From assembly GCA_965649225.1 (NCBI GenBank), contig CBFGJX010000002.1, positions 18,625 through 82,624 on the forward strand: a DNA stretch of 64,000 bases, written 5' to 3'. A program made the position numbers and the translations under genes. Source of the stretch: a candidate division WOR-3 bacterium (lineage in GTDB: Bacteria; Hydrothermota; Tepidihabitantia; Tepidihabitantales; Tepidihabitantaceae). Positions 1,037 to 63,870 of this stretch are shown here, in pieces; within the stretch, counting starts at the first letter, position 1; each line of letters starts with the position of its first letter. The notes below the pieces were generated by a model. That model was not told where the DNA came from. It searched no databases and saw only the letters and a list, made by a program, of their open reading frames with translations.

Positions 1037-1130
1037 GTACAGTCTGGCTGTCAGCATATCCATCATTCAGCGCGAGTCAACACGGACGCAGTAACAGCAG
1101 AAGGTTGAGCAAAACAGGAGTCAGCGCCGG

Positions 1131-1158
1131 TTGACGACTGTTCGGCCAAAACTATATT
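1131..1158 (+). promoter_or_regulatory. sigma70-type promoter of the PTS operon
   Basis: TTGACG-N16-TATATT, 7 nt before GTG 1166. Confidence 0.7.
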
Positions 1159-1165
1159 GGACTGC

Positions 1166-1636
1166 GTGAGCAGGCTTCTGTTGCGAATTGACGATCGAAT
1201 GTTGCATGGACAGGTCCTTGCCGGATGGGTTCAGCCTTTGGGTATCAGACACGTTGTGATTGCCAACGATACTGTTGCGGAAGACAAGCTTCAGGTTGAG
1301 CTTTACCGTGCCGTGGTGCCGGCCGGGCTCAAGCTGGACGTGTTGCCGCTGAACAAAGCCACGGAACTGCGGACCGGTGGCGAGAAGACGATGATTCTGG
1401 TCAGTTCGCCGGCCGATGCGCGGCGACTGGTGGAGGCCGGGGTGACTCCCGATGTTGTCAACATTGGTGGACTCCACCAAAGCCCTGGTCGCACAGAGAT
1501 TTTTCCTTTTGTATGGGTTTCGGCAGACGACAGACGGGATATTCGTTTTCTGCTCGATGCCGGGTTAAGGGTTGAAGTGAGGATGCTGCCTGACGACCCG
1601 CTGCAAAGTCTGGCAAGACTTGTCGAGGGCAGTTGA
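1166..1636 (+). CDS. PTS mannose/fructose/sorbose family IIB component
   Basis: RIDDRMLHGQV phospho-His motif and VNIGG motif. Start moved to GTG 1166 because TTG 1157 lies inside the -10 box. Confidence 0.9.
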   Translation: MSRLLLRIDDRMLHGQVLAGWVQPLGIRHVVIANDTVAEDKLQVELYRAVVPAGLKLDVLPLNKATELRTGGEKTMILVSSPADARRLVEAGVTPDVVNIGGLHQSPGRTEIFPFVWVSADDRRDIRFLLDAGLRVEVRMLPDDPLQSLARLVEGS

Positions 1637-2325
1637 TGATTCAGGAGTTTGCGGTTGCGGTTCTTTTGGCGGCGGTCATTTTGCTGGATAAGTGGACGGT
1701 TGGAGAGTTTGGTATCTCCCAGCCGATAGTGGCATGCCCGGTACTGGGCTGGGCATTTGGCTCCTGGACCGCCGGGCTGCAGCTTGGTCTTGCCCTGCAA
1801 CTGGGGTGGCTGGCGGCGCTGCCGCTCGGCAGCAGCCGGCAGATAGATTACCAGTCGGCGGGCGTTGCCGCCGTTCTTGGCTACCGGGTCTTCAGCCGCC
1901 TGCTGCCGGCCGCTGGCGAAGGTCAGCTGCTGCTCGGGGCAATTCTTCTTGGCACCGTGTGTGGTTTGATTGGCGAGTTTCTCGACTTCTGGCACAAGCG
2001 GCTGAATGGCCGTTTGTTTCTGGCCGGTGTTGCCGCCAGGTCAATGGCGGCCGCGTTTGGCTGGCACTTCGCAGGGCTGGGCACTGGATTGCTGCGGGGA
2101 GCGATGGCTGCGGTCTTGTACATCGGTCTGGCACTGCTGGTGAAACCGCTGGTGTCGCTGCTGCCGGCTGTGCAGCCGGCAAAAGTGGTTGCCGCGGCGT
2201 TGATGGTGGGAGCGGCGGCCGCGGCGCGGCTGCTCGTTGACCGGGCGCGGGTTGGCTGGTTTGCCTGCGGCGGTGCAGCAGGGGCGGCGCTCTGGCTGCT
2301 GCTGGCAGGCAGAGGCGGTGGATGA
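1633..2325 (+). CDS. PTS mannose-family IIC component
   Basis: Hydrophobic protein with ISQPIVACPVLG motif. Overlaps the IIB stop. Confidence 0.85.
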   Translation: MMIQEFAVAVLLAAVILLDKWTVGEFGISQPIVACPVLGWAFGSWTAGLQLGLALQLGWLAALPLGSSRQIDYQSAGVAAVLGYRVFSRLLPAAGEGQLLLGAILLGTVCGLIGEFLDFWHKRLNGRLFLAGVAARSMAAAFGWHFAGLGTGLLRGAMAAVLYIGLALLVKPLVSLLPAVQPAKVVAAALMVGAAAAARLLVDRARVGWFACGGAAGAALWLLLAGRGGG

Positions 2326-2996
2326 TGATGGCACTGCTGGGATGGCTGCTGCTGCTGTTCGTCCAGACTTCCTGGTCTTATGCCGGTTCGCAGGGACTCG
2401 GGCTGCTCGCCGTTCTGATTGCTCTGGCAAAAAACAGCGAATTGCGGCGCAGAATCTGGGACAAGTATCGGTCACCGGCAAATACCAATCCGTATCTTGC
2501 CGGTGTGATTGCCGGGGCGATTCTTCATCACGAAAGCGACCAGAGCAGCGACCCGGCTCAGTTCCGTGGGCCGGCCGAGGCGGCTCTGGCGGCGACTGGT
2601 GACCTTTTCTTCTGGCGGACGCTGCGACCAGGGCTGTCAGTCGTGGCTGCCGCTGTCGGTACCGTCGCCACGGCGCTGGCGCCGGTCGTGTTTCTTTTGC
2701 CCTTTCTTGTGACCAGCCAGGTATTCCGGGTTTTCGGGCTGGTGCGCGGTCTTGCCAGGGGCAGGGCGGCTGCGCTTGAGATTGCGACGCTGTTGCGGGC
2801 TATGAATAACCGGGCCGCACCGTTTTTTGCCGGTTGCTGCGGGTTATTGCTTGTCAGGGTCGTTGGCCGTGGCCCAGTGCTGCCGTTGGTGGCGCTAGGA
2901 CTGACCGCTTACCTCTTGAGCGGTATCAAGTGGTTGGCAGTCTGGCTGCTGCCGCTTGGACTGCTGGGACTGGCATTCGCCGGGGTGCTGGCGTGA
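2322..2996 (+). CDS. PTS mannose-family IID component (divergent, short)
   Basis: QTSWSY..SQGLG, NTNPY and LAATGDLFFW..LRP motifs of IID. Confidence 0.85.
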   Translation: MMMALLGWLLLLFVQTSWSYAGSQGLGLLAVLIALAKNSELRRRIWDKYRSPANTNPYLAGVIAGAILHHESDQSSDPAQFRGPAEAALAATGDLFFWRTLRPGLSVVAAAVGTVATALAPVVFLLPFLVTSQVFRVFGLVRGLARGRAAALEIATLLRAMNNRAAPFFAGCCGLLLVRVVGRGPVLPLVALGLTAYLLSGIKWLAVWLLPLGLLGLAFAGVLA

Positions 2997-3259
2997 AGCG
3001 GGCGGTGGTGATTGTCGGCGGACCGGTCGGGTTGCATGCCCGGCCGGCGGCCGAGTTTGTGCGGATTGCTGAGCGATTCCGCTCTGATGTGCGTCTGACA
3101 AAGGAAGGCATCAAGGTCAACGCCAAGAGCATCCTCGCAATTCTGACACTTGCGGCCGAAGCGGGCAGTGAAGTGGTACTGGAGGTCAACGGCCCGGACG
3201 AGAACGAGGCATTCGAGCAACTTAAAAGAAAGCTGGAGAACTGTGAAACCCAAACGTGA
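2993..3259 (+). CDS. ptsH: Phosphocarrier protein HPr
   Basis: GLHARPA (His15) and NAKSIL (Ser46). GTG start overlaps the IID stop. Confidence 0.95.
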   Translation: MKRAVVIVGGPVGLHARPAAEFVRIAERFRSDVRLTKEGIKVNAKSILAILTLAAEAGSEVVLEVNGPDENEAFEQLKRKLENCETQT

Positions 3260-5033
3260 GCGCATCCTGCGGGGCATCCCTGTCTCGCCCGGTTTTGCAC
3301 AGGGACGGTTGCTGGTATATCGGCCCTATTCGCCCCGTTATGAAGAGGTTGTCCTTCCGCCTGAGGCCGTTCCGGCAGAGCAGGCCCGATTCCGGCAGGC
3401 AGTACGTGCGGCCCGGCGCGAGCTGACCCAGCTGGCCGAGCAGGTTAGTCGAGACATGGGCCGCGATTTTGCCGATTTCGTGCTTGTGCAGTCGGCAATT
3501 CTTGATGACCCCGAGGTTCTACGGCGGGCGGAAGAATACATCGCCAGCAAGCGCCGTAATGCCGAGTTTGCCTTTGTCGAGGTGTTGAAACAACTGATGG
3601 AGCCAATGGCCGGCTCGACACCTCTGTTCCGTGAGCGCATGCTGGACGTCGGTGATGTTACCAATCGCGTGCTGCGCAATCTGCTGGGAGATCAGGCACG
3701 CACACTGCTGGAAGTTGCTCGCGGCAGTGTCATTTTTGCCCATGACTTGCCGCCGTCGGACTCGGCACTGCTCGACCCCGAGCGGGTTGTCGGATTGGTT
3801 CTTGAAATCGGTGGCAAGACTTCGCACACGGCGATTATGGCCAAGGCAAAAGGCATTCCGGCAGTCGCCGGGATTCAAAACGCTGTCGGGGCTGGCACTG
3901 ATGGTGAGGACGTCTTCGTTGATGGTTTTCGGGGAATTGCGGTGGTTACCCCGTCCCGCAACCGCCTGCGGGCTTACGAAGTTGAGGTCCGACGGCGGCG
4001 ACGTCACCTCCAGTCGCTTTCGCGGCTGGCGGATGCCCCGCCGGTTACGCTCAACAAGAAGACAATCGACCTTTCCGCGAACATCGAGTTTCTGGCTGAG
4101 GCCAAGGCAGCTCGTGCCAACGGCGCGATGGGAGTCGGCCTCTTTCGTACCGAATATATGTATCTGGCCCGGCGGCGACCGCCGACAGAGGAGGAACAGT
4201 ATCAGGTTTATGCCGAGGTGGCCCGGCTTTTCGACCCACACCCGGTAATCGTCCGGACCTTCGACCTCGGCGGCGACAAAGTCCTGCCGGGCTATTCGGA
4301 ACACAACCCTTTTCTTGGTTACCGTGCCATTCGGCTTTCCCTCGACAACCTGCCGGTGTTCCGGGCACAGCTCCGAGCCGCACTGCGCGCGTCAGTTCAC
4401 GGCAACGTCAAGGTCATGTTTCCAATGATTGCCACTGTCGAGGAATTGCGCCGGGCGAAACTGGAGGTGGAGCGAGCGAAGGAATCCCTGCGTGCCGATG
4501 GTCACCGATTCAATGACGATTTCGAGGTAGGGGTGATGGTCGAAATACCCTCGGCGGCTCTGATCGCGGACCGGCTGGCACGGGAATGTTCGTTTCTCTC
4601 GATCGGTTCGAATGACCTGACCCAGTACACCTTGGCGGTCGACCGCGGCAACGAACGGGTTGCGCGGCTGTTTGATCCGTTCCATCCGGCGGTGCTGGCT
4701 CTGATGAAGCAGACGATCGACGCAGCACACCGCCAGGGAATCTGGTCCGGAATCTGCGGCGAGCTTGGTGCTGACCCACTGGGCATCTTTGTGTTGTTGG
4801 GAATGGGCATCGATGAGATATCGGCTGCCGCCGGGTTCATACCGGAGGCAAAAAACATCATCATGGCAATCGACACCGACGAGGCGGCAGAGGTTGTGGA
4901 ACTGGCGATGAAGAACGCCGGTACCGCACTGGAAGTCGAGAGGATCATTCAGCGTGAGATTGGGCGGCGTTTTCCGGAACTGGCAAAGCTTATCGCAATA
5001 GCAGGAGGAGTCGGTGCAAAACACCGTCGCTGA
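3243..5033 (+). CDS. ptsI: PEP-protein phosphotransferase (PTS enzyme I)
   Basis: GGKTSHTAI phospho-His, GLFRTE, RTFDLGGDK, NPFLGYRAIR, SIGSNDLTQY, GICGE. Confidence 0.97.
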   Translation: MKPKRERILRGIPVSPGFAQGRLLVYRPYSPRYEEVVLPPEAVPAEQARFRQAVRAARRELTQLAEQVSRDMGRDFADFVLVQSAILDDPEVLRRAEEYIASKRRNAEFAFVEVLKQLMEPMAGSTPLFRERMLDVGDVTNRVLRNLLGDQARTLLEVARGSVIFAHDLPPSDSALLDPERVVGLVLEIGGKTSHTAIMAKAKGIPAVAGIQNAVGAGTDGEDVFVDGFRGIAVVTPSRNRLRAYEVEVRRRRRHLQSLSRLADAPPVTLNKKTIDLSANIEFLAEAKAARANGAMGVGLFRTEYMYLARRRPPTEEEQYQVYAEVARLFDPHPVIVRTFDLGGDKVLPGYSEHNPFLGYRAIRLSLDNLPVFRAQLRAALRASVHGNVKVMFPMIATVEELRRAKLEVERAKESLRADGHRFNDDFEVGVMVEIPSAALIADRLARECSFLSIGSNDLTQYTLAVDRGNERVARLFDPFHPAVLALMKQTIDAAHRQGIWSGICGELGADPLGIFVLLGMGIDEISAAAGFIPEAKNIIMAIDTDEAAEVVELAMKNAGTALEVERIIQREIGRRFPELAKLIAIAGGVGAKHRR

Positions 5034-6030: not shown

Positions 6031-6076
6031 ATCGCCGGCCCCACTTCTGTCTGGCCGCGGCCGACACACCAGTCCG

Positions 6077-7198: not shown

Positions 7199-7237
7199 TT
7201 AGCCTGAGGCGTGATTGTGAACCACAAGGAGGCGAAC

Positions 7238-8379: not shown

Positions 8380-8772
8380 CTATCGGCCGAGCCGCTCGCG
8401 TCGGGCGATCAGTTCGGCGGCGGTGCTGAGTATGACTTGGTTGTCGCCGGGCTTGACGATGAAGGCATCTGCGCCCTCGGCGATTGTCTGATGGCGTTCG
8501 GATTCCGACGAGCTGGAGGTGAATACGAGAATCGGCGGTGAAGACTTCGGGTCACGTTTGAATGATCTCAGAACTTTATGGCCGTCGATTCCCGGCATGC
8601 GGAGGTCGAGGATTACGAGGTCATAGTGGGCGGTTGGGTCCAGGCTGAAGACTTGCAGGGCATTTGCCGCTTCACTCACTCTGTAACCCGCATGTTCAAA
8701 CAGCTTCCTGAGCAAGAGGCGTATGCTCGCCTCATCGTCAATTATCAGTACGTGTTTCTTGCTGTCCTGCAT
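8380..8772 (-). CDS. Single-domain response regulator (CheY-like receiver)
   Basis: LIIDDE, DLRMPGIDG phospho-Asp, FIVKP. Confidence 0.92.
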   Translation of the reverse strand: MQDSKKHVLIIDDEASIRLLLRKLFEHAGYRVSEAANALQVFSLDPTAHYDLVILDLRMPGIDGHKVLRSFKRDPKSSPPILVFTSSSSESERHQTIAEGADAFIVKPGDNQVILSTAAELIARRERLGR

Positions 8773-8862
8773 CGTATCAGTCTAGGACGTGGATTCAGCC
8801 AGTCAAGTTAGTCCTGAAAGTCACGGGCGCCGGTTCTGGATCGTGCGCCGGAGGGAGCCTAG

Positions 8863-11739: not shown

Positions 11740-11792
11740 AACGGGATGGCAGTTTCCTTGACTGGCACTGTGCCGGCGGGTAGATTGATGCC

Positions 11793-13100
11793 ATGCATCG
11801 TACGTTGGCTGCGGAGATAACTCAGCACATCGGCAAGCGGGTACGGCTTGTCGGCTGGCTTCACCACGTTCGTGAGCTGGGGACGATTTCGTTCGTCATT
11901 GTCCGTGACAGGACCGGACTGGCACAGGCGGTTACTGACGCTCCGGCACGGTTCGGACTCGACCGCCTGAAGCGGGAGAGCATTGTCGCGGTCACCGGCA
12001 CGGTGAAGCCGGAACCCCAGGCCCGGCGCGGTGCGGAACTGATACTGGAGTCGATTGATGTTATCTCTGAACCGGTTGCAGCGTTGCCTTTTGAGGTCAA
12101 CCGATCCAAAAAGAAGCTGAATCTCAAAATCGACACGATACTTGACCATCGGGCCTTTGGTCTGCGTAATCCTGAATTCGGCTGGGTTTTTCGTGTGCAG
12201 GCCGAAATCGTCCGGACGTTTCGAGAATACCTGCGCAGTCAGGGATTTCTTGAGGTACATACCTCAAAAATCGTTGCCGCTGGTACCGAGGGCGGTACAT
12301 CGCTGTTTCGGCTGAAGTATTTCGAGCAGGATGCCTACCTTGCTCAAAGCCCGCAGTTCTACAAGCAGATGCTGGTTGGCGCCGGTTTTGAACGGGTGTG
12401 CGAAGTCGGATTTGTCTATCGGGCTGAGGACCACGCTACTTCCCGGCACATCAACGAGTATCTATCACTGGATTTCGAGATGGGTTTCATTGACTCGTAT
12501 CGTGATGTCACTGCGATGGAGACCGGTTTTTTGCGCCAGCTGATGCAGAATCTCAATGATAACTGTGCTGAGGAACTGGAACTGTTTGGTGTAAGTCTGC
12601 CCGAAGTGCCGGCCGAGATACCCGACATACCGCTCAAGGAAGCGCTGGCGATACTGGCGAAGGATTTTGGCCGTGACACCAGCGGCATCGAAGACCTTGA
12701 TCCCGAGGGAGAAAGGCAGATCTGCGAGTACGCCCGCAAGAGTCTGGGCAGTGAGTTTGTTTTTGTCAGTCACTATCCGGCCAGCGCCCGACCATTTTAC
12801 ACGATGCCCGACCCGACAGACCCGGCGTACACGCTCGGATTCGACCTGCTGTTCCGGGGGCTGGAGGTGACAACCGGAAGCCAGCGTATCCACGACTACC
12901 AGATGCTCTGCAACAATATTCGCTCACGCGGTATGAATCCGGACGACTTCAAGTTCTATCTTGAGATTTTCCAGTATTCGATGCCGCCGCACGGAGGTTT
13001 GGCAATCGGTGCCGAACGACTGACCCAGCAGTTGCTTGGACTGGCGAACATTCGCGAGGCGAGCCTGTTTCCCCGCGACCGGTATCGACTTACGCCGTAG
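11793..13100 (+). CDS. aspS: Aspartate--tRNA ligase, short archaeal/AspRS2 type
   Basis: 435 aa, GWLH.VRELG OB fold, YLAQSPQFYKQ, YRAE...SRHINE, RPFYT, GSQRIH, PPHGG.AIG.ER, LFPRD. Lacks the bacterial GAD insert. Confidence 0.93.
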   Translation: MHRTLAAEITQHIGKRVRLVGWLHHVRELGTISFVIVRDRTGLAQAVTDAPARFGLDRLKRESIVAVTGTVKPEPQARRGAELILESIDVISEPVAALPFEVNRSKKKLNLKIDTILDHRAFGLRNPEFGWVFRVQAEIVRTFREYLRSQGFLEVHTSKIVAAGTEGGTSLFRLKYFEQDAYLAQSPQFYKQMLVGAGFERVCEVGFVYRAEDHATSRHINEYLSLDFEMGFIDSYRDVTAMETGFLRQLMQNLNDNCAEELELFGVSLPEVPAEIPDIPLKEALAILAKDFGRDTSGIEDLDPEGERQICEYARKSLGSEFVFVSHYPASARPFYTMPDPTDPAYTLGFDLLFRGLEVTTGSQRIHDYQMLCNNIRSRGMNPDDFKFYLEIFQYSMPPHGGLAIGAERLTQQLLGLANIREASLFPRDRYRLTP

Positions 13101-16330: not shown

Positions 16331-16358
16331 GCCTATTTATAGCCGAAACTGCTCACAG

Positions 16359-16388
16359 CGCAAGAACCCCGCAGACGGGGTCCTTGCG
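16359..16388 (-). terminator. GC hairpin, probable terminator of the alpha/beta-hydrolase gene
   Basis: CGCAAGAACCCCG-caga-CGGGGTCCTTGCG inverted repeat just after the stop. No clear U tract. Confidence 0.5.
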
Positions 16389-20486: not shown

Positions 20487-20586
20487 GGTATCCTCCGAGG
20501 GTTGTTTTCTTACGGCTGTGGCAATGGTAGTTGATTGGCAGGGCAAGTCAACCCGATTGTCCGAACTGATGGGTTACTTGACAGAA

Positions 20587-21344: not shown

Positions 21345-21516
21345 GTTTTCTCCTTTCGGTCTGCCTCGTTCAATGGCCCAACTGACAGCCTGTAACAGCT
21401 ATCGAGACTGGCTGTCAGATGGATATTATTCTAAGCCGTTCATCCGTCAAGGGGCGCGTCGTTCAAAACAGCGCTGGCGCTTGACTTGATGAATGTTTGC
21501 CGTAGGCTTGCTTCTA

Positions 21517-21579: not shown

Positions 21580-23552
21580 TGCTTCTGGCCCTTGCCACTG
21601 TCTTTCTCCTCGTCGGAGCTGTTACAGTGTCGTTCTGGCTTGGGCGCCGTTCGCTGAAAAAGACCGTCAGGCTGCTGGAGGCCAGAGTATGGCGGCTGCA
21701 GTCGGAGGTCAACCGGCGCTACCTCGAACGACTGGCTCCGATGCAGCGACGACTCGGTTGTCTGTATCTGAACGGACTGCCTGCCGCCAGTTCTGCCAGC
21801 ATCACCGAGGGCTTTGAAGCCGGCGTCCGTTATGCGGCTCAGGCGGCTTGGGACAGGGCGCTGACCCGCTGGAGCACACTGTTGCCAAAAGCTGAGAAAT
21901 CCGAGGGCATTGCGTTGCAGTTTCTTTGCGCCGGCTGCGAGGTTCTGCTCGGACGGCTCGAAGCTGCCGCCGGTAGGCTGGCAGCAGCGTTTGAACTGGC
22001 GTCGGGTGATTCTCGTGGTGCGGCGGCGTGCGCATTTGCGCTCGGCAAAATAAAGCTGGAACTCCACCAGAAGGATGAGGCCCGGGAGCGCCTTGCAACC
22101 GCCCTCGCGCTGGCCGAGACTGCTGGCGACAAGGCGCTGCTGGCCGAGTCTTCGACACTGCTGGCGGAGCTAGAGGCGGAGAGGGGGTTGGCCGATCGGG
22201 CGACCGAGCTGCACCGCCGGGCGCTGAGAATCCGTGAGGAGCTGCGTGATACTGCCGGGGCCGGTAGACAATACGGGGCAATCGGTCGATTGCTTGCGGC
22301 GCGTGGTCAACTTGTCGCAGCCCGTGCTGCCTACGAGGATGGCCTTGAGCTTGCAAGGCGGGCCCGGGACCGTCTCGGAGAGGCCAACCAGCTCGTAGCA
22401 ATCGGTGTTCTGCTTTCGCAACAAAATGAGAGGCGCCGGGCGCTTGAGGTTCTGGATCGCGCCTTCGCTCTCTACGAGGAAATCCGAAACTGGCACGGTG
22501 CGGCTGCCGCGGCCTATGAGATCGGCCGAGTGCGCGAATCGATTGGTGATGACGATTCGGCGATTGAGTACTTTGAGCGCTCGCTGCAGTTTGCCCGTCA
22601 GATACATGACGAAGGACTGATTGCTTTGGCCGAGTCGGCGATTGCACGCGGCTGTGCCCGTCACGGGGCGTATGACCGTGCACTTGAGCTGCTTTACGAT
22701 TCGTCACGACTGCATCGGCTTGGGGGACGGACCTCTGCTGCTGCCAGTGATCTGGCGGTGATCGCCCGGATTCGGGGTCAGCTGCACGACGTCACTGAGG
22801 CGTTGAACTGTCTTGGACAGGCGCGCCAGCTTTTTGATGAAGCCGGCGACAGACCCGGAGCGATTCAATGTCTGATTGATGAAGGTGAACTGGTCATGCG
22901 ATCAGAACCGGAACGGGCGCTGCGGTGCACAGAAGAAGCCCTACGGCTGGCGCATGAGCTTGGACGGCGTGATCTGGAGGCCGGTGCGTTGTCTGTGCAG
23001 GCCCGTATTCAGACGGCTCTGGGTGAGCTTCGGGCAGCGGCCGCGTCGTATCGGGCGGCAATCGCAATCCGTGCTCAGTTGGGCGATGAGCGCAGTCTCG
23101 TTGAAGATGAGGTCGCTTATGCGTCGGTCAGTCGACAACTGGGTGACCTGACGGAGGCTGAACGCTGTCTGGGGCACGCCTTGGGCCGTGCTCAAGCCGC
23201 GGGCGACGAGCTCGCTCAGGCGGAGGTCCTGCTGGCGACGGGTGAGGTCCACTTGGCCGCGGATCGCGCCGCCGCCGCCAGAGATGTCTTTCGCCAGGCG
23301 TTGCATTTACTTATGGGCACCAGCCGGACCGATCTTGAAGCCTCGGCACTGCATTGCCTTGGCCGGGCGTTGTTCGAAACCGGCGAGACTCAGGAGGCCC
23401 GGCGATGTTTAGAACTAGCGCTCAAGGCTTACGGACGGCTTGGCTCCCGCGAGGCGATGGAAGAAGTTTCCCGCACGTTGAGCCTTATGCCAGCTCCGGA
23501 AAAGGGCACGGTTCAGATTGTCGACCGGGAGGCTGACCCGGGCCGCAATTGA
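21579..23552 (+). CDS. Membrane-anchored tetratricopeptide repeat protein
   Basis: N-terminal TM helix followed by many Ala/Leu-rich TPR-like helical repeats (e.g. AIEYFERSLQFAR). Confidence 0.85.
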   Translation: MLLALATVFLLVGAVTVSFWLGRRSLKKTVRLLEARVWRLQSEVNRRYLERLAPMQRRLGCLYLNGLPAASSASITEGFEAGVRYAAQAAWDRALTRWSTLLPKAEKSEGIALQFLCAGCEVLLGRLEAAAGRLAAAFELASGDSRGAAACAFALGKIKLELHQKDEARERLATALALAETAGDKALLAESSTLLAELEAERGLADRATELHRRALRIREELRDTAGAGRQYGAIGRLLAARGQLVAARAAYEDGLELARRARDRLGEANQLVAIGVLLSQQNERRRALEVLDRAFALYEEIRNWHGAAAAAYEIGRVRESIGDDDSAIEYFERSLQFARQIHDEGLIALAESAIARGCARHGAYDRALELLYDSSRLHRLGGRTSAAASDLAVIARIRGQLHDVTEALNCLGQARQLFDEAGDRPGAIQCLIDEGELVMRSEPERALRCTEEALRLAHELGRRDLEAGALSVQARIQTALGELRAAAASYRAAIAIRAQLGDERSLVEDEVAYASVSRQLGDLTEAERCLGHALGRAQAAGDELAQAEVLLATGEVHLAADRAAAARDVFRQALHLLMGTSRTDLEASALHCLGRALFETGETQEARRCLELALKAYGRLGSREAMEEVSRTLSLMPAPEKGTVQIVDREADPGRN

Positions 23553-23584
23553 CAGATTGCTTCTGGTTACTAGAATGCGGTCGA

Positions 23585-27302: not shown

Positions 27303-27348
27303 AGTTATTCTCCTTTGGTTGTCAAGACTAACACTGTAACTGGTGATG

Positions 27349-28128
27349 TCAAGACAAGCGACGATTCTCCAGAAAAGAAGCCGACCCCACTTCTGCGATT
27401 CTGAAAAAAGATTCGGGCTGGAGGCTCGCCCCACCGACCAGCAGGCCGTCGACTTCCGGCAGTGCCAGCAGTTCAGCGGCAACAGCCGGAGTGACGCTAC
27501 CGCCGTAGAGCAGCCGTGTCCGCTCAGCGGTATCAGCTCCGAAGCGCACGGTGAGCCAGTGACGCAGCCACTGGTGTACGTTGACAATCTGGTTAGCCGT
27601 GGCGGTATTGCCGGTACCGATTGCCCAGACCGGTTCGTAGGCGATGACCGTTTCGCCGCCAAAATCAGCAGGGGCAACTACCGACAGTTGCCGTTCCAGG
27701 ACGCCGAAGGTGCTGCCCTGACTTCGTTCTGTGGCGGTTTCGCCGCAGCAGAACACCGGCGTCAGGCCCGTCGCGCGGGCGGCGGCGAGTTTACGGGCAC
27801 AGATGCTGTCGGTTTCGCCAAAGACATTCCGTCGTTCCGAGTGGCCGACTATCACATAGCTGCAACCAAGTTCGGCGAGGAACTGGCCCGAAACTGCCCC
27901 GGTGAATGGCCCGGAAAGCTCCCAGTGCAGGTCCTGTCCGCCCCAGCGTACCGTTGTGCCAGTCAAGTTTTCGGCGACGGCTGGAAGCGCCGTATAGGGT
28001 GGAAAGACCACCAGCTCTGCCGGGAGGCGGTCCGGCTCAAGTTTCTTCAGAGCTCGACAGTAATCGCCTGCCTGAGCAGCCGTCTTGTTCATTTTCCAGT
28101 TTCCAGCGATCAGCGGTATGCGGCTCAT
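27349..28128 (-). CDS. tpiA: Triosephosphate isomerase
   Basis: AGNWKMN, GHSERR, AYEPVWAIGTG, YGGSV, LVGGASL. Confidence 0.98.
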   Translation of the reverse strand: MSRIPLIAGNWKMNKTAAQAGDYCRALKKLEPDRLPAELVVFPPYTALPAVAENLTGTTVRWGGQDLHWELSGPFTGAVSGQFLAELGCSYVIVGHSERRNVFGETDSICARKLAAARATGLTPVFCCGETATERSQGSTFGVLERQLSVVAPADFGGETVIAYEPVWAIGTGNTATANQIVNVHQWLRHWLTVRFGADTAERTRLLYGGSVTPAVAAELLALPEVDGLLVGGASLQPESFFRIAEVGSASFLENRRLS

Positions 28129-30325: not shown

Positions 30326-30448
30326 TATGCCTCCTTAAGTAGCAAGACCCAGAAGGGAAGATAACGGGGAACAGATGCCTGTCAACACTCGGACCGGGGC
30401 AAGAAACGACATTGACAGCTGCGGGTGAAGCCGTAGCCTGTGGGTGCT

Positions 30449-31858
30449 GTGTCCCGTGGCGATGTTGTTACTGTCAATGGCTGGCTGGCCATCGTTTCCT
30501 GCTGTCTGGCCGCACTTGCTGCCGGCTGTCAGAGTTCTGTACCGCCAGTTCCGGTGATTTCCGCCCCAATGCACGGTCAGCCGGGAGAAACGCTCTGGTT
30601 CGGGGTTTGGGCCGCGGGGAGGCAACCGTTGTCTTATCAGTTTGACTGGGGCGATGGGTCCATGAGCGACTGGAGTCCGCTGGCGATGCCGGAGGATACA
30701 TTTGACTTGTGGCATGTCTATCGTCAGGAGGGCAGTTTTGCCGCGTCGGCAAGGACGCGCTACCGGCATGAACAGCCGAGTGACTGGTCAGCACCACAAA
30801 CGATAGTCGTGTCAGTTGCCGGCCCCCTTGTTCCGATTCCGCTGGCCTTTCCTGACACCGCTCATCTCGAATCGACTTACACCTTTCGGGCAATCGTCAC
30901 TCACGCTTCAGGAGAAAGTACAGCCTGTGAGTTCCACTGGAGTGATTCGATCATCCAGCAGACTGACTACGTATCGTCGGGCGATACCGCCATTGTCAGA
31001 CGCCGTTTCAGCAAGCTGGGGCCGATTGAAGTTCGATTCCGGGGCGTGGACGCGACAGGAAACCGTGGCCCCTGGGCGCCCGCTGATACTATCACAGTTG
31101 CGGCGCGGCCGCTCGTTCCGCCGCGCAGACTGCGCCTGTTTTCTTACGGTGGAGTGTTTGTCCAGCTGGCCTGGGACGGCATGCGGCCGGTGGATTCGGC
31201 CCAGTATCGGGTCTGGTTCCGCGCCACAAACTCGGCCGGCTTCGCGCTGGTCGGCGTGCTGAATCGCACGGCGTTCATCCACGACCCTGGTGGGGTAACC
31301 GGAGACTATACCGTTTCGTCATTGCGTGACGGCGAGGAGATTTTCGCCCAGGAAACGGTTTCGACGCGGCCGGTTCTGACAGACACGCTGGTTCTGGGCG
31401 AATTGAACAGCGGTCTGACTGCCGGCTACGGGTGGGACAGGGTGACCGGTCGCGCGGCGCTGTATCCAATGACTGACAGCGCGTCGGCGGATCTGGTTGA
31501 TATCTATTTCACTGACTTCACCAGCGGCTATCTGGGGCCGGGTTACTACCTTGCCAGTGCCAGTCTGGCACCGACTGACCCTGGCGGTGGCGTGCCGGCA
31601 GGGGCGTGGCGACGTACCCGTCTGCTCGGCCTGCCGTCGGGTGGCGGTGACCCACTGCCGGAATACGACTCGCTGCTGTACTTGGACAGGCTTGACGTCA
31701 ATACCTTCGTCTCCTATGCTGCATTGCACACCCCGGAGGGACATTACGCCCTCGTTACGGCTATATCGCCAAGCAGTGTCGATGGCACGGTGAGGATCGT
31801 CGGACTCTTTCAGCGCATTCCGGGACTAAGACTGATCCAGTATGCTGGACATCGATAG
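30449..31858 (+). CDS. Lipoprotein with PKD-like and FnIII-like domains
   Basis: Lipobox LAAGC and YQFDWGDGS PKD motif. Start uncertain: GTG 30440 abuts the -10 box, so GTG 30449 is preferred. Confidence 0.7.
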   Translation: MSRGDVVTVNGWLAIVSCCLAALAAGCQSSVPPVPVISAPMHGQPGETLWFGVWAAGRQPLSYQFDWGDGSMSDWSPLAMPEDTFDLWHVYRQEGSFAASARTRYRHEQPSDWSAPQTIVVSVAGPLVPIPLAFPDTAHLESTYTFRAIVTHASGESTACEFHWSDSIIQQTDYVSSGDTAIVRRRFSKLGPIEVRFRGVDATGNRGPWAPADTITVAARPLVPPRRLRLFSYGGVFVQLAWDGMRPVDSAQYRVWFRATNSAGFALVGVLNRTAFIHDPGGVTGDYTVSSLRDGEEIFAQETVSTRPVLTDTLVLGELNSGLTAGYGWDRVTGRAALYPMTDSASADLVDIYFTDFTSGYLGPGYYLASASLAPTDPGGGVPAGAWRRTRLLGLPSGGGDPLPEYDSLLYLDRLDVNTFVSYAALHTPEGHYALVTAISPSSVDGTVRIVGLFQRIPGLRLIQYAGHR

Positions 31859-33267: not shown

Positions 33268-34184
33268 GATAGGCCAGTAATATACTCGTGAGCGGACATA
33301 GCCGCAAGCGCGCCATCGGCGACGGCGGTTGCGATCTGACGCAGCGGGGTTACCCGAACGTCGCCTGCGGCAAACACACCCGGAACGTTGGTCCGCAGGT
33401 GGCCATCGGTTGGTATGAATCCGTTCGGGTCGAGCTGGATTGTCTCCTGACACCAGGTTGTGTTGGGTACCGAGCCGACATAAATGAACAGACCAGCGAC
33501 TGGCAGCTCCCGAGTGCTGCCGTCCTTGCGCGATTCCAGAATGATTGACTCGAGACGGTTAGTCCCGTTCAGCCCGGTAACGATAGTGGACAGATGCAGA
33601 GTGATGTTTTGACAGGCACGGACCTTGTCCTGAGTGTGCCTGGCGCCGCGGAACTCGTCACGGCGGTGTACAAGGTGCACCCGCGAGCAGATATTGGCCA
33701 GGTAGAGCGCTTCGTCTAGGGCCGAATCGCCGCCACCGACCACGGCGACTTCACGGCCGCGGAATAGCGGACCGTCGCAGACTGCGCAGTAGGACACGCC
33801 CCGGCCGCGCAGTTCGTTTTCGCGTTCGAGCCCGAGCTGTTTGGACATCACGCCTGAGGCAATGATCGCGGCGCGGGGGCGGTACTCCCCGGCGGTGGTG
33901 ATAACCGCGATGCCTTCGGGGCCGACGCTGATAGCGGTTGCTTCGGCCGTATCCAGCGCACAACCAAAGCGGCGGGCCTGCGCCTCCATCGCCTGCGTCA
34001 GGGCAGTTCCCTCGATCGGTTCGGGAAAACCGGGGTAGTTTTCGACGACAGAAGTCAACGCGACCTGGCCGCCGGGCAGAGCCCGTTCAAGCACGACTGT
34101 GGCGTGACCCGAGCGCGCACCGTAAAGCCCGGCAGTCAGTCCAGCCGGCCCGGCACCAATGACGAGTATCTCCGGTGTGTTCAT
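33264..34184 (-). CDS. trxB: Thioredoxin-disulfide reductase
   Basis: GAGPAG, ENYPGF, GVSYCAVCDG, GGGDSA, GVFAAGD. Confidence 0.96.
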   Translation of the reverse strand: MNTPEILVIGAGPAGLTAGLYGARSGHATVVLERALPGGQVALTSVVENYPGFPEPIEGTALTQAMEAQARRFGCALDTAEATAISVGPEGIAVITTAGEYRPRAAIIASGVMSKQLGLERENELRGRGVSYCAVCDGPLFRGREVAVVGGGDSALDEALYLANICSRVHLVHRRDEFRGARHTQDKVRACQNITLHLSTIVTGLNGTNRLESIILESRKDGSTRELPVAGLFIYVGSVPNTTWCQETIQLDPNGFIPTDGHLRTNVPGVFAAGDVRVTPLRQIATAVADGALAAMSAHEYITGLS

Positions 34185-34200
34185 CGCCTGCATTGTAGAC

Positions 34201-34238
34201 AAAAAGAACCGGAGGGCAAGCTGACGCCGCCCTCCGGT
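34201..34238 (-). terminator. Rho-independent terminator of the argF / beta-propeller unit
   Basis: CCGGAGGGC...GCCCTCCGG hairpin followed by TTCTTTTT on the minus strand. Confidence 0.8.
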
Positions 34239-37919: not shown

Positions 37920-38074
37920 CTTTTCTCCGGTTAGTATACCTATGTTGGCGCCACAGAATAGACCGCGATTGCATGCAGTCAAGGAGGAGGGGAAAGGAAG
38001 TCTAAAAACTGCCGGGAGCGCGAGGAATCAATCGGTTTGATCGCGGAGAGCAGATTGTCTTTCCTAACCGGACA

Positions 38075-38092: not shown

Positions 38093-38360
38093 CTGGTGCT
38101 TTCGAACAACAGCAGGAAAGTTCCTAAAACAGCGTTCGTTGCCAGTGCCGGGCTTTTTTGACTCCCGCACCGGGTAGAGGCCTTTGGTTCGAACGAGCCA
38201 CGACCGGGTTGTGCGAAAGCGCAGCAAGCGGCCGCAGGCGGAAGCGTCGCAAGGTCATGGTTCGGAGCGACGTAATGCCGGTTCTTCGGCTGTGAGCTGT
38301 GGCGAACGGCACGCGGCCAGGGATTTGACTTGTCGTCCGGTTTCGCTACATTAGGCCGCA

Positions 38361-39500
38361 ATGAAGATTCACGAGTTCCAGGCCAAAGAGATTTTCTCCA
38401 GACACGGCATTCCGGTTCCGCGCGAGCGCGTTGCCGCAAGTTCCGACGAGGCAGCGACCATCGCTGCGGAAATCGGCCTGCCGGTGGTTGTCAAGGCGCA
38501 GGTTCTGGTCGGCGGCCGGGGCAAGGCTGGCGGCGTGAAGCGGGCCGGCTCCATTGAGGAGGTTCGCTCGGCCGCGGGCGGGATAATTGGAATGGATATC
38601 AAGGGGCTGAAGGTTCACCGGGTGCTGGTTTCGGCGTGCGCCGATATCAAGGGCGAGTTCTATGTCGGCATCATTGTCGACCGTGCGGCGCGCGTGCCAG
38701 TACTGATGGCCTCGGCCGCTGGTGGGGTGGAAATCGAAGAGGTTGCCCGCACGAGTCCGGAAAAAATCCTGAAGATACCGATCGATCCGCTGATGGGGCT
38801 TTTGTCGTTTCAGGCACGCAACGCCGGAATGGCACTTTTCGGTGACGCGAAGCTGGCGCGCGACTTCACCAGCATCGCCCAGAAGCTGTACCGGATCTTC
38901 GTCGAGCAGGACTGTTCGCTCATCGAAATCAACCCGCTCGTGAAGCTGGCCGATGGTTCGCTTCTGGCCCTGGATGCGAAGATCAACTTCGACGACAACG
39001 CCGACTTCCGACACAAGGAATGGGAGGCGATGCGCGACCTGTCGGCCGAGGAGCCAAAGGAACTGGAGGCCAAGGCGGCCGGGCTTTCCTACATCAAGCT
39101 CTCCGGCAACGTCGGCTGCGTCGTCAACGGCGCCGGACTGGCGATGGCAACGATGGACCTGATAAAACGCTATGGTGGTGAGCCGGCCAACTTCCTTGAT
39201 GTCGGTGGTTCGTCGTCGCCGGAGAAGATGGTCACGGCAATGAAGATAGTCCTCTCCGATCCGAACGTGAAAGCTATTCTCGTGAACATTTTTGGCGGTA
39301 TCACCCGCTGCGACGACATCGCCAACGGACTGATCCAGGCGCGGCAGATGGCCGACATCAGGGTGCCGATTGTGGCGCGATTGACCGGCACCAACGCCGA
39401 GCAGGCACGCGCAATACTACAGAACAGTCCGGTGACCAGTGCGGCAACGATGGCTGAAGCGGTGCAGAAAGCGGTTGTACTTGCCGGAGGCAACAGATGA
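38361..39500 (+). CDS. sucC: Succinyl-CoA synthetase beta subunit
   Basis: [58 protein letters not shown]. Confidence 0.97.
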
Positions 39501-43354: not shown

Positions 43355-43450
43355 CGTCAGTCGGCGATTATATGCCCGCCAATTCGTGCGTCAAGTGTAT
43401 TGACTGATGAGGATTTGACACGTCCAATGCGCAGGTGCTATAATCGGCCG

Positions 43451-50505: not shown

Positions 50506-50663
50506 TTGGCACACCTTTCCTGAACAGGCAAACGTAAGAACAAACCTGTCCCAGCTGAACAGGTCGCCCGATTATAGGTAGCAACTGGAGGGTGTCAAAC
50601 GACTAAGACTGGACATCGCCAGTCGGATTGACGCCCGGACGGAACGTCATATACTCCAGACAG

Positions 50664-56965: not shown

Positions 56966-56969
56966 CAGG

Positions 56970-58869: not shown

Positions 58870-58881
58870 TGGTTCACGAAA

Positions 58882-59358: not shown

Positions 59359-59395
59359 GGCACAACAACCCGTTTGCTGCGGTCGTGACGGTCAA

Positions 59396-60397: not shown

Positions 60398-60519
60398 TCA
60401 GCTCCTTATGCCTGCAACTTGCAGAATGGTAGTCTAACGGCGTGTCCCGACAAGTCAAAGAGAAAATAGCAACTGCCAAGCTGGACAGCTTTTGACTCAG
60501 AGTTATACTGTCGCCGTAC

Positions 60520-60594
60520 GGTGAGTGTAGCTCAATTGGTTAGAGTACCTGACTGTGGCTCAGGATGTTGGGGGTTCAAGTCCCCTCACTCACC
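60520..60594 (+). tRNA. tRNA-His(GTG)
   Basis: G-1 then GTGAGTG...CACTCAC-C, anticodon arm CCTGA-CTGTGGC-TCAGG. Confidence 0.95.
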
Positions 60595-60665
60595 CTGGCG
60601 GCCGGCAAGCCCGCAGCGTCGGGCTTGCCAACCGCCTGGCGCCGAGTACACTGCCCGCGGCAGTT

Positions 60666-60739
60666 GCGCCCGTAGCTCAACTGGACAGAGCGTCGGGCTT
60701 CGAACCCGCAGGCTGCGCGTTCGAGTCGCGCCGGGCGCA
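60666..60739 (+). tRNA. tRNA-Arg(TCG)
   Basis: GCGCCCG...CGGGCGC acceptor stem, loop CTTCGAA. Confidence 0.92.
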
Positions 60740-60796
60740 GTTTTTCGAAAATTGGAATTTCCGCCGGCGGGTAAGACCAGCCGGCGCGGATTCAAT

Positions 60797-60870
60797 GCCC
60801 CGCTAGCTCAACTTGGCAGAGCAACGGATTCTTAATCCGTGGGTTGCAGGTTCAATTCCTGCGCGGGGTA
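60797..60870 (+). tRNA. tRNA-Lys(CTT)
   Basis: GCCCCGC...GCGGGGT acceptor stem, anticodon arm ACGGA-TTCTTAA-TCCGT. Confidence 0.93.
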
Positions 60871-60975
60871 TTCTGTTTATGGGCTCGCGAAAACCGTGAC
60901 CGGTACGCAGACAGCCGTTGTCGCCCGGACCCGACATCAGTGCATCTGCTTGCCGGCAGTCTCCTGGGGATATAA

Positions 60976-63825
60976 ATGACTACCGTCATACTGCTTGTTT
61001 CTCTGCTGACCGGCGTTGACGCCGGACCCGGTGCTGCGAATCTGACCGCGGCAAGGCGTTACTGGGTATTCTTCACCGACAAGGCGGTCCGCTCCAGCCA
61101 GCAGTATCAGGCAGCCCTGGACGCTGCGGCGCTCCTGGCCAGCCCGGCATCAGTTCAACGCCGCGCTGCCGCCCCGGTTCGCGGGTTTGACTACGACGAC
61201 CTGCCGGTCAGCGAGCAATACCTGCGGGCGATCGAGCAACTCGGTGGCAGACTGCACATGGTTTCTCGCTGGCTCAATGCCGCGAGTTTCACGCTCTCCC
61301 CCACAGCGGCCGATGCCGTCAGCCTGCTGCCCTTTGTTCGCAAAGTGACGCCGGTGGCGAAGCGAACGCTGACCACAGACGCCTTTCCGATACAGGCTTT
61401 TCCGGTCGACGACCGGCACCGGGCAACGGATACTGCCAAGGACCGCCGGTTTTATGGACCCTCTTATGAGCAAGCCCGGATGATGGGCGTCCCTGAGGTT
61501 GCTGCCCGTGGCTACACCGGTTCGGGCGTTCGACTGGCCATGTTTGATTCCGGCCTGCGGCTTTACAACCGTGCAGTCGCCCGGATTCGGCTCGGCCCCC
61601 AGCGCGATTTCCTCTCCGGCGACAATTACTATCAGGCACAGTCCGTCCGGAGCTGGGCTGCGACGCCGATCGACCAGCTGCGCTATCTGGGACTGGTCGC
61701 CGCTCCGTCGCTGGTCGAGGCCGATACCCTGCTGACCGGAGCCAGACCACTGCTGGCGGTGTTCTGCGCCGATTCATTCGCCTACGGCTACAACCCGCCG
61801 CGCCGCATGCTTTTTGCCACCCACTCAAGCGACCATGGGACAACCTGGAGCACTGCCCGTCCGATTTACGCCTGTCGCCCGTACGACCAGACGGTAGAGA
61901 ACACTGCGCTCGCTGTCCGGCGTGCAGTCAGCTATCTGGCGTTCAACGACCTGACCGAGACCTCAGGCCGGGCAACAAGCAACCTTTATCTCGGCTGGTT
62001 TGTCGGAACCGACTGGGGCGGCGCGCCGCGCTTTCTCGGCGCCGGCCGCTGGCCCAGTCTCGCCATCGCCGGTGATACGCTGTATATCGCATTCGTCCGG
62101 TCCGACTCTGCGCTTGGATTTGCCAAATACCTTGTCTCCGACATCAACCCGGTTTTGCTGACGAATGTAACCGTCACGCTTGACCAGCGGGTCAGTCAGC
62201 CGCAGGTCGCGGTAGGAAGCGACAATTCGATTGACATCGTCTGCGTTGCCGGCGATGCGCTGCGTTACTACCGCTCCCGCGATGGCGGTGAGACCTTCAG
62301 TCTCGTCAGCGAACCGGTTGCTGCTGCCGCTCACCAGCCGCAGCTTCTCCGTTTCGGTGATACCTGTCTGCTCTTCTGGCGTAACGAAGCCACTCTTCCC
62401 TGCGCCCGACTGTCGCTGCTGCGTTCAACCGACGGCGGCCAGTCATGGTTCGGGCCAGTCAGCATCTCCGACACCCTGCTGCCGGCCGGCGGGTTCTCGG
62501 CGGCACTGTCGCCCGACGGCCTTGACGTCGCCTGGCTTTCGGCCGGACGGCTGTATCGCAGCCGCTCAACCAACTTGGGTGCAGACTGGCAGCCGCCGGC
62601 TCTGCTTGACAGCAGCGGCTTTGCTACCTTGCCCAGACTTGTCAGTACCGAGCAGGGTCCGATGACGACCTGGCTTCAGCGTGGTGACGCCACTGCGGTC
62701 TGGGAACCCGCCGACACGCTGCGCTTCTCGCGGGAACAGCCGCATCATGGCACGCGAATGGCATCAATCATCGCCGGCTACCAGCCCGGTGGTGTTGTGG
62801 GAGTCGCTCCCGGTGTTGAACTGCTCGTCGCCCGCACCGAGCTGTTCAAGGTACGTTCCGGCCGCTACTACGAATACAACTTGGAGGAAGATACCTACAT
62901 CGAGGCACTGGAATGGGCTGAGCGCGTCGGGGCCGACATTGTCTCGACATCGCTGGGCTACCGAAGCTGGTACGACGACAGCCAGTTTGACGGCCACACC
63001 GCCCCGGTCTCGATTGCCGCTGACCGCGCCGCGCGACGCGGCATGCTCATCGTTACTGCGATGGGCAACCGTGATACGACAATCTACCCATGGCCGCGTC
63101 CCTACATCGTTGCACCGGGCGATGCCGAGAACGTCGTCACAGCCGGCGGGGTCCAGAAATCACTAGTCCCGTGGCGCGGCACTGGAACCGGCCCGACTGC
63201 CGACGGCCGCATCAAACCTGACCTCGTTGCGCTCTCTGATACAGTCGCGGTAGCTTCACCAGACTCGCTCGACTGGCTTGACGGCTCGGTTGGAACATCC
63301 TGCGCCACCGCACTGATTGCCGGTGCTGCCGCGCTGCTGAAAGAGGCACACCCGAACTGGACTGCTGAGTCCATCAAAGTTGCCCTCTACTCCACTGCGA
63401 CGCTCAGCGTCAAGAGCTGCACCTTCGGTTTTGGCGTTCCGCGGATCGATTCGGCTTTCAAACGTTACCCGCCGGCACCGGACAACCAGCCGATCACGCG
63501 CGACGCAATCGCCACAGTTTTTCCTAACCCATTCATCACCGGCGAGCACGACCGCGTCTGGTTTGGACTCAACATCCGTCAACCCCAGACCGAGGCAGAA
63601 ATCGCTGTCTACACCGCCTCAGGTTCACTGGTGCGCGTCATCCCGCTGGACGCCGGCCGACTGCCCCGCCCGGGAAGATACACCAGCCGGGACGAACTCG
63701 AGCCGATCGGCGCCTACTGGGATGGCAAAAACTCTGCCGGCCAGCCTTGTGCCGCCGGCCTGTACATGGCAGTGCTGCGGACAACATTCGGCAACCACAC
63801 GACCCGCTTCGCCCTTGTCCGCTGA
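60976..63825 (+). CDS. Secreted S8 subtilase with inserted BNR (Asp-box) propeller and T9SS/FlgD-like CTD
   Basis: Prodomain SRWLNA, FDSG, HHGT, AMGN, KPDLVA, GTSCA, four S.D.G.TW-type boxes, C-terminal FPNPF...WDGKN...GLY. Confidence 0.88.
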   Translation: MTTVILLVSLLTGVDAGPGAANLTAARRYWVFFTDKAVRSSQQYQAALDAAALLASPASVQRRAAAPVRGFDYDDLPVSEQYLRAIEQLGGRLHMVSRWLNAASFTLSPTAADAVSLLPFVRKVTPVAKRTLTTDAFPIQAFPVDDRHRATDTAKDRRFYGPSYEQARMMGVPEVAARGYTGSGVRLAMFDSGLRLYNRAVARIRLGPQRDFLSGDNYYQAQSVRSWAATPIDQLRYLGLVAAPSLVEADTLLTGARPLLAVFCADSFAYGYNPPRRMLFATHSSDHGTTWSTARPIYACRPYDQTVENTALAVRRAVSYLAFNDLTETSGRATSNLYLGWFVGTDWGGAPRFLGAGRWPSLAIAGDTLYIAFVRSDSALGFAKYLVSDINPVLLTNVTVTLDQRVSQPQVAVGSDNSIDIVCVAGDALRYYRSRDGGETFSLVSEPVAAAAHQPQLLRFGDTCLLFWRNEATLPCARLSLLRSTDGGQSWFGPVSISDTLLPAGGFSAALSPDGLDVAWLSAGRLYRSRSTNLGADWQPPALLDSSGFATLPRLVSTEQGPMTTWLQRGDATAVWEPADTLRFSREQPHHGTRMASIIAGYQPGGVVGVAPGVELLVARTELFKVRSGRYYEYNLEEDTYIEALEWAERVGADIVSTSLGYRSWYDDSQFDGHTAPVSIAADRAARRGMLIVTAMGNRDTTIYPWPRPYIVAPGDAENVVTAGGVQKSLVPWRGTGTGPTADGRIKPDLVALSDTVAVASPDSLDWLDGSVGTSCATALIAGAAALLKEAHPNWTAESIKVALYSTATLSVKSCTFGFGVPRIDSAFKRYPPAPDNQPITRDAIATVFPNPFITGEHDRVWFGLNIRQPQTEAEIAVYTASGSLVRVIPLDAGRLPRPGRYTSRDELEPIGAYWDGKNSAGQPCAAGLYMAVLRTTFGNHTTRFALVR

Positions 63826-63870
63826 GCTTGACTGCCAGCCCGGAAAACAGTAAATTGACCTGCAAGGCAT

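Follow-up and report, generated by a model that had tools for sequence, protein, structure and literature searches.

Do the housekeeping promoters of a candidate division WOR-3 bacterium keep their −35 and −10 boxes 16 bp apart instead of the usual 17 bp and, if they do, what has moved the spacing? The question is raised by a 64,000-nt stretch of this genome (contig CBFGJX010000002.1, positions 18,625 to 82,624; the whole stretch is called the window below), in which an initial annotation made from the letters alone, the sequence-only reading, picked 22 promoters by eye and reported a 16-bp spacer in 19 of them. We found that the spacing in this genome (G000; 2.34 Mb, 62% GC, 98.7% complete) departs genuinely from that of the usual sigma70 promoter and does so across the whole lineage. 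Within the phylum the spacing state has switched repeatedly at clade level among 17, 16 and 15 bp, including between sister families, and promoter spacing looks like an evolvable trait, not a fixed rule. In published surveys, 17 bp is the most frequent spacer in all species with transcription start site data (PMC8407463); the median spacer is 17 in 49 of 49 genomes, with 17 enriched in 60 of 67 phyla and below baseline in none (bioRxiv 10.64898/2026.09.23.753901); and 17 predominates in 49 species according to a model trained on E. coli (PMC12641261). The literature we searched, mostly outside subscription journals, nowhere describes housekeeping promoters with a modal spacer of 16 bp and held no paper on WOR-3 or Stahlbacteria promoters; the per-phylum Table S47 of ProFinder may hold a WOR-3 row.

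We counted the pattern TTGACN-k-TANNNT, where k is the number of bases separating the −35 and −10 hexamers. G000 has 20, 380, 157, 66 and 43 sites at k = 15, 16, 17, 18 and 19, on a background of about 27 (all other spacings from 8 to 30 have 13–42 sites each). The excess is limited to spacers of 16–19, the peak at 16 is about 14 times background, and the difference between 16 and 17 after subtraction of background has P of about 8 x 10−25. The 1,045 upstream intergenic regions, defined from a set of 1,938 genes called with the genome's own hexamer model (starts are approximate), have 3, 285, 109, 39 and 12 sites at k = 15–19. Because the genome-wide and upstream-region counts both peak at 16, the 16-bp mode is real and does not stem from selection bias, the danger that the sequence-only reading had seen in its own manual search. 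Its phrase "almost throughout" was too strong: the share of 16-bp sites is about two thirds, not 86%, and 17 bp is a real second class in G000.

That the peak might be an artefact, produced by picking sites by eye, by the reading frame or by base composition, is largely refuted, and we give this reading hardly any weight. The count can falsely favour 16, as seen in E. coli K-12, where it gave 90 sites at 16 and 42 at 17 around a mean of about 64 per spacing, with no peak and with both values under their reversed-pattern controls; because this control is peakless and uninformative, the count is meaningful only with a peak above background. In G000 the same-frame spacings 13, 19 and 22 have only 28, 43 and 34 sites, 355 of the 380 16-bp sites (93%) fall in the 10% of the genome that is intergenic, and the same pattern finds more sites at 17 than at 16 in 39 other genomes of the phylum and in most genomes outside it (below). 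(As side observations on E. coli K-12, the rarity of its 17-bp sites relative to the mean spacing fits either the removal of strong spurious promoters by selection or an influence of reading frame, and the scan shows repeated TTGACT-16-TA(A/T)TAT sites.)

The G000 sites appear, from their sequence and position, to be ordinary predicted RpoD promoters, with standard boxes at a standard distance from the start. A sense gene begins within 300 nt of 318 of the 380 16-bp sites, which are also intergenic. A TTGAC site lies no more than 90 nt upstream of 30 of the 48 tRNA and tmRNA genes (22 at 16, seven at 17 and one at 18). An in-frame ATG follows the −10 box by 6, 7, 8 or 9 nt in 25, 17, 20 and 12 of 333 16-bp sites (74 of 333 together) and is almost never nearer; the 17-bp class has the same offset and control spacings have none. 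Therefore, the −10 box sits where the sequence-only reading had placed it, and the short spacer is not balanced by a longer gap to the start. TTGAC is needed for the peak, there being no genome-wide peak with TTGC; the unfixed positions of the −10 box lean to T, A and A (42, 45 and 47%), with TATAAT and TAGAAT the commonest forms; and no conserved sequence appears in the base-frequency table of the spacer. Distance from consensus is similar in the two classes (mean 1.70 for 16-bp and 1.63 for 17-bp sites, P = 0.47), so a spacer of 16 needs no compensation by better boxes. Three side observations concern the layout of the sites: the base just before TTGAC is C in 47% of G000 sites and in 82% of 34 sites from three 17-bp families (f10/f12/f20, below), the base just before the −10 box is C in 52% of G000 sites, and the leaderless layout also occurs in families f5/f7 and is rare in the f10/f12/f20 sample.

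How far does the 16-bp state extend? We extended the count to 141 genomes of the phylum (k = 15, 16, 17 and 18), in families coded f1–f34 (labels of the analysis tool, not taxonomic names). Raw modes are 16 in 85 genomes, 17 in 46, 15 in six and 18 in four; dropping 18 genomes whose top count was <2x the lowest or <1.3x the reversed-pattern control leaves 123 genomes with signal, with modes of 16 in 80, 17 in 39, 15 in three and 18 in one. All 35 genomes of the same class as G000 peak at 16. Some families are strict: f5, f6 and f8 have 338–740 sites at 16 per genome and a 17-bp count at or under the reversed-pattern control, and f10, f13 and f20 have a 16-bp count at or under that control. Others (f4, f18 and f23) are mixed, with ratios near 1.0–1.2, and a 15-bp mode occurs in f9 (two genomes) and f15 (one genome). 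In samples of about 400 kb, upstream counts at 15, 16, 17 and 18 were 0, 64, 10 and 14 in f5/f7 and 2, 5, 34 and 3 in f10/f12/f20 (the 17-type sample), and perfect TTGACA/TATAAT promoters upstream of genes were split 21:0 between 16 and 17 in the former and 1:7 in the latter. The same contrast can be seen at a single promoter, that of tRNA-Thr in the rpoB region (compared in G000 and 40 such regions, 16 of which yielded no site): its spacer is 16 in G000, G051, G039 and G012, and 17 in G060 and G070. GC content was rejected as the cause, as the rpoB regions of 16-mode and 17-mode genomes both span about 35–63% GC.

Some observations on the phylum sample stand apart. Families f22, f24, f29, f31 and f32 have a slight TTGAC/TANNNT peak at 15–18 or none, and may use another −35 box or do without one; in f31 a single genome has its peak at 18. 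A repeat with a 66-nt period at G044:C1:90580-90805 fits the promoter pattern; it is probably a CRISPR repeat and a small source of false counts (G007:C1 and G039:C1 are listed alongside). The site listings of G039 and G084 contain long runs confined to one strand.

Outside the phylum we counted sites at 16 and 17 in 32 genomes drawn from 80 loci, an uneven and Bacillota-rich sample. In 28 of them 17 exceeds 16, and the other four have 16/17 counts of 43/39, 93/91, 44/44 and 32/15. The 93/91 genome (G161, locus L041, titled Hydrogenobaculum) is at about twice control at both spacings, a possible even 16/17 state outside the phylum. G000 resembles Firmicutes-type repertoires in having hundreds of near-perfect TTGAC promoters per genome, but the clostridial and other Bacillota genomes with a clear signal all have more at 17 than at 16 (for example 82/306, 87/269 and 217/389).

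To place these states on a phylogeny we used FastTree on RpoB (from about residue 241 onward) and RpoC (about 1–500) of 90 of the 141 genomes, with 1,509 columns, a midpoint root and no outgroup; f29 is absent and two f9 rows lack RpoC. The 16-mode family f14 is sister to the 17-mode family f28, the 17-mode f20 is sister to a clade of 15, 16 and mixed states, and the class of G000 has as its sister a clade whose members are 17-mode or signal-free, all three with support of 1.0. Parsimony required nine mode changes on 83 tips, or eight between short and 17 on 77 tips, of which some rest on weak nodes or near-even families and in which gain is indistinguishable from loss.

Which enzyme reads these promoters? 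G000 encodes six sigma70-family proteins: one RpoD-like protein of 596 amino acids, which matches RpoD models best with scores slightly below their curated cut-offs, and five of 198–262 amino acids. Because the five resemble extracytoplasmic function (ECF) sigma factors, elimination points to RpoD, the sole group-1/2 sigma of G000, as the reader of the TTGAC/TANNNT promoters. The nearest titled RpoD relatives are from Candidatus Stahlbacteria, and their region 2.4–3.0 is identical to that of the same-class family f7. A second primary-like sigma was rejected as the determinant, since 16-mode and 17-mode families alike have one and the search of G000 revealed none. So was CarD: all 150 PF02559 matches listed (in 134 of 141 genomes) are in frames of at least 430 amino acids, and a stand-alone CarD was found in neither group. 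The PF02559 matches listed for the phylum sample are in Mfd-sized and ~690-amino-acid frames only.

We think it fairly likely that the preferred spacing of the holoenzyme in the G000 lineage has moved down by about one base through distributed substitutions, as the sequence patterns suggest. The RpoD holoenzyme would take 16 best, or 16 and 17 equally, and would accept 17 too; several small substitutions, differing between clades and without any indel, would change where sigma4 sits on the beta-flap with respect to sigma2/3; and with the spacing at 16 the extended −10 contact would be little used, so that sigma region 3.0 would drift. We infer both that the G000 sites are transcribed and that the holoenzyme is the cause. 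A shifted holoenzyme is favoured because the strict clades hold hundreds of sites at one spacing with no excess at the other.

The best molecular correlate of short spacing in the phylum, judged from aligned sequences, appears to be an altered sigma region 3.0. Residues E458 and H455 of this region read the extended −10 TG (PMC2613000); their equivalents in G000 are D439 and H436, flanked by A435 and I437. With the canonical form taken as P[VI]HM[IVLT]E, a definition made after viewing the alignment, the genomes with signal that have an altered region number 46 and are without exception 16- or 15-mode, whereas 24 of the 34 with a canonical region are 17/18-mode and ten are 16-mode. The glutamate is likewise missing from three of 18 outgroup RpoDs, whose genomes hold more sites at 17 than at 16. 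Since canonical 16-mode genomes and altered 17-type outgroups exist, a spacing of 16 does not require the change, and outside the phylum the change is not enough to bring it about; it is probably a relaxation of constraint after the shift, or an enabling step, and not the sole cause.

The use of TG itself brings in the first serious alternative, a permissive polymerase with drift. Here 16 and 17 would be read about equally, which may hold for any sigma70 at near-consensus promoters; with TG lost, nothing would keep promoters at 17, and the mode would fall through deletion bias or drift. TG at −15/−14 is present in only 21 of 380 16-bp sites of G000 (about 5.5%) and seven of 157 17-bp sites, with no enrichment, and in 4–15% of 16-bp sites across 16-mode families, as against 49% of 17-bp sites in f20, 29% in f12, 24% in f10 and 23% in f19. 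The mixed families also suit this account. However, the 17-mode families f13, f26 and f27 have TG at only 4–5%, and because they keep 17 without it, TG loss does not release spacing. Near-neutrality would not yield the strictness of f5, f6 and f8, or the reverse strictness of f10 and f20, and the 15-bp modes of f9 and f15 also stand against it. We regard permissive drift as possible but rather unlikely.

Several results weigh against a shifted holoenzyme, and some of them are what permissive drift would lead one to expect. No polymerase indel was found in RpoD regions 2–4, the beta-flap or the beta' zipper. RpoD regions 2–4 of G000 have no gap relative to three solved SigA chains and are equal in length to those of a 613-residue RpoD; no sigma3–sigma4 linker indel separates G000 from solved SigA/RpoD or, among the matches listed, splits the 16- and 17-mode groups; and none in the beta-flap or the beta' zipper/zinc-binding domain tracks 16- versus 17-mode genomes. 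The sequence-only reading was thus right to see a lineage trait, read by RpoD and off the 17-bp mode, but the lineage-specific indels it had looked to in sigma region 3.2–4 and the beta-flap did not appear on alignment. A single diagnostic residue fared no better: between five 16-mode and five 17-mode clades there is no column with disjoint residues, in a search that covered RpoD, RpoB from about 241 to the end and RpoC 1–500 (RpoB 1–240, the rest of RpoC, RpoA and RpoZ lay outside it). The ten canonical 16-mode genomes also count against it, and an independent-pairs test of region 3.0 gave four same, none opposite and two tied (P = 0.125, not significant). Weaker sites in G000 lean less to 16 than strong ones (285:109): sites with a one-mismatch −35 box are split 41:25 between 16 and 17 (P = 0.11) and those with a non-T at −12 are split 38:38 (P = 0.0002), a trend not expected from a sharp optimum at 16. 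Sites within genes of G000 are depleted at 16 and at 17 alike, and intragenic depletion was dropped as a way to find the optimum (for which the ~400-kb samples lacked statistical power). The tRNA-Thr promoters of G024, G138 and G061 include 17-bp as well as 16-bp sites, and in an E. coli synthetic library 16 is on average as strong as 17 (PMC8695583). Because of the weak-site ratios, the depletion at both spacings and this library, the G000 enzyme probably has a 16–17 window; the 38:38 split, the depletion and the library also speak for permissive drift.

The leaning of strong sites to 16, together with the description of consensus promoters as too tight (PMC8695583), could also reflect attenuation: the optimum would remain at 17, and near-perfect boxes would be set at 16 against over-tight binding, as at E. 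coli stable-RNA promoters but across the whole genome. We consider this improbable, as sister clades hold equally perfect hexamers, plus TG, at 17; sites with a one-mismatch −35 still peak at 16 in G000 and in f5/f7 (10:2); and the 16-bp class comes no nearer to consensus than the 17-bp class. The rejection is tempered by the 17-type sample, in which one-mismatch −35 sites number 16 at 16 and seven at 17, on a background of 3–11.

A cause on the DNA side is also unlikely, although a little less so. The sequence-only reading had raised it as a different twist regime: overwound or relaxed DNA, through a topoisomerase, salt or a nucleoid protein, would give a 16-bp spacer the usual angle between the boxes with the polymerase unchanged. 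It would account for no polymerase determinant being found, and spacer length is linked to the supercoiling response for single promoters in PMC8695583, but a section heading of that paper describes spacer length as having only a minor influence on sensitivity to supercoiling. Topoisomerase content gave no support. Loss of gyrase was rejected: both groups have gyrA, which was found in 135 of 141 genomes, and of the six without a match four are 17-mode and two are 16-mode. Reverse gyrase was rejected too, on a search that covered G000 and gave only a sub-cut-off match of topoisomerase I type. The 2-bp shift of the 15-mode would be hard to reach by twist alone. A side observation on gyrase is that gyrA matches of f20 (G100:C148, G085:C350, G065:C116) are split by an in-frame insertion, probably an intein, that follows model position 66; the frames are 1,120–1,264 amino acids long.

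The 15-mode and divergent RpoDs deserve separate mention. G008, a 15-mode genome with 524, 138, 168 and 102 sites at 15, 16, 17 and 18, retains an RpoD-like protein of 582 amino acids (L177), in which region 2.4–3.0 is divergent, sigma3 has a gap of one residue and two insertions, each of one residue, lie near region 3.2. Its sister family f9 (G001 and G075) has counts of 205, 113, 77 and 46 in one genome and 189, 101, 65 and 39 in the other, and no RpoD match at 1e-40. Because G008 keeps a long RpoD-like protein, the 15-bp state does not require RpoD loss. In f16 the RpoDs (L130–L135) are very divergent in regions 2.3–3.0, with conserved positions changed, yet TTGAC-16-TANNNT sites are abundant.

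How does the G000 promoter compare with known ones? It shares with the canonical sigma70/SigA promoter (TTGACA-17-TATAAT in E. coli, B. subtilis and most phyla with start-site data) the hexamers, the 6–9 nt to a leaderless ATG and a full-length RpoD with gap-free regions 2–4; it differs in lacking TG enrichment and in having D439 at the position of E458. About 65% of its spacers are 16, about 25% are 17 and <10% are 18. E. coli stable-RNA (rRNA and tRNA) promoters likewise have near-consensus boxes 16 bp apart. There they are a regulatory minority, whereas in G000 16 is the default and includes protein genes, and sister clades have 17 at the same kind of gene. The classic compilation gives 50, 20 and 20% for 17, 16 and 18, with the ruler set by sigma regions 2–4 and the beta-flap (PMC2613000). 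MerR-type promoters are another case of good sigma70 boxes at a spacing other than 17, but their spacers are long (19–20 bp), regulon-specific and dependent on a DNA-distorting activator (PMC13494017), whereas the G000 spacing is short, genome-wide and without conserved spacer sequence (operators were sought via the base-frequency table only).

Within the window, all 19 listed 16-bp sites lie where the sequence-only reading had put them, with hexamers 16 bases apart, and its three exceptions (aspS and tRNA-Asn at 17, DUF4870 at 18) were borne out. The motif it gave, TTGNNN/TANNNT, fits 16 of the 19 as TTGACN/TANNNT and the trxB site as TTGCCC/TACAAT, but not the DRG site (which ends in TATAAA) or the tRNA-His site (which starts with TGGACA). 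A mechanical scan for TTGACN-k-TANNNT gave 16 sites at 16, four at 17, two at 18 and two at 19; two 17-bp sites and one 18-bp site, all within called genes, had been missed by eye, as had a 16-bp site ahead of tRNA-Arg.

In order along the window, with protein genes named as in the sequence-only reading, TTGACT-16-TATGCT (1053–1080, minus strand) lies 15 nt ahead of tRNA-Gln and back to back with TTGACG-16-TATATT of the PTS operon (1131–1158, plus). TTGACT-16-TAGACT of the response regulator (8779–8806, minus) has the ATG of a 130-amino-acid open reading frame 6 nt on, a leaderless layout, and TTGACT-17-TAGATT of aspS (11758–11786, plus) also has an ATG 6 nt on. The weak DRG candidate TTGCGC-16-TATAAA (16336–16363, minus) fails TANNNT and is doubtful; TTGACT-16-TACCAT (20524–20551, minus) belongs to serA. 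The lipoprotein and TPR genes have a divergent pair, TTGACG-16-TAATAT (21423–21450, minus) and TTGACT-16-TAGGCT (21481–21508, plus), after which come TTGACA-16-TAGAAT 8 nt ahead of tRNA-Val (23549–23576, plus) and TTGACA-16-TAGTCT of secG (27325–27352, minus). Another divergent pair consists of TTGACA-16-TATCTT of gap (30358–30385, minus) and TTGACA-16-TAGCCT (30412–30439, plus), and the previously unlisted TTGACG-17-TATGCT (31692–31720, plus), within the 3' part of a called gene, is uncertain. Four sites follow: TTGCCC-16-TACAAT of trxB (34192–34219, minus; ATG 7 nt on), TTGACT-16-TATTCT of argF (37955–37982, minus), TTGACT-16-TACATT of sucC (38325–38352, plus; ATG 8 nt on) and TTGACG-16-TATAAT of ferredoxin (43367–43394, minus). 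The DUF4870 site TTGACA-18-TATAAT (43415–43444, plus) has perfect hexamers at a long spacing, and the HDAC site TTGACA-16-TATAAT (50571–50598, minus) is a perfect consensus at 16. The remaining sites are TTGACG-16-TATACT of nnr (50628–50655, plus), TTGACT-16-TAGACT of tdh (60431–60458, minus), TGGACA-16-TATACT 11 nt ahead of tRNA-His (60482–60509, plus), the unlisted TTGCCA-16-TACACT 12 nt ahead of tRNA-Arg (60625–60652, plus, coordinates derived from this distance) and TTGACT-17-TAAATT 14 nt ahead of tRNA-Asn (63828–63856, plus). Leaderless layouts are at 8772–8806, 11758–11793, 34184–34219 and 38325–38361. Back-to-back divergent promoters are at 21423–21508, 30358–30439, 50571–50655 and 60431–60509; genome-wide, G000 has 74 intergenic divergent pairs with −35 boxes at most 80 nt apart, some of them 7–12 nt.

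A class with a mode of 16, whose close relatives have modes of 17 and 15, is at odds with a universal 17 at the sub-phylum level, a pattern that phylum-pooled statistics would blur. Promoter prediction and genetic tools for such lineages are affected, because a spacer of 17 is built into models trained on E. coli. Structural biology has long asked what sets the optimal spacing, and sister clades with the same hexamers and different spacings make swaps of sigma or core a direct test. The broader proposal is one on which we are evenly divided: that the sigma70 spacing ruler is an evolvable property of the holoenzyme, which moved repeatedly among 17, 16 and 15 within one phylum, each time re-spacing hundreds of promoters, and did so for 16 without an indel in sigma regions 2–4 or the beta-flap. 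If it is true, polymerases with a shifted spacing preference would be obtainable, and sisters of opposite state (f14 and f28, f20 and its sister clade, the G000 class and its sister clade) could be used to map the responsible residues or an unknown accessory factor.

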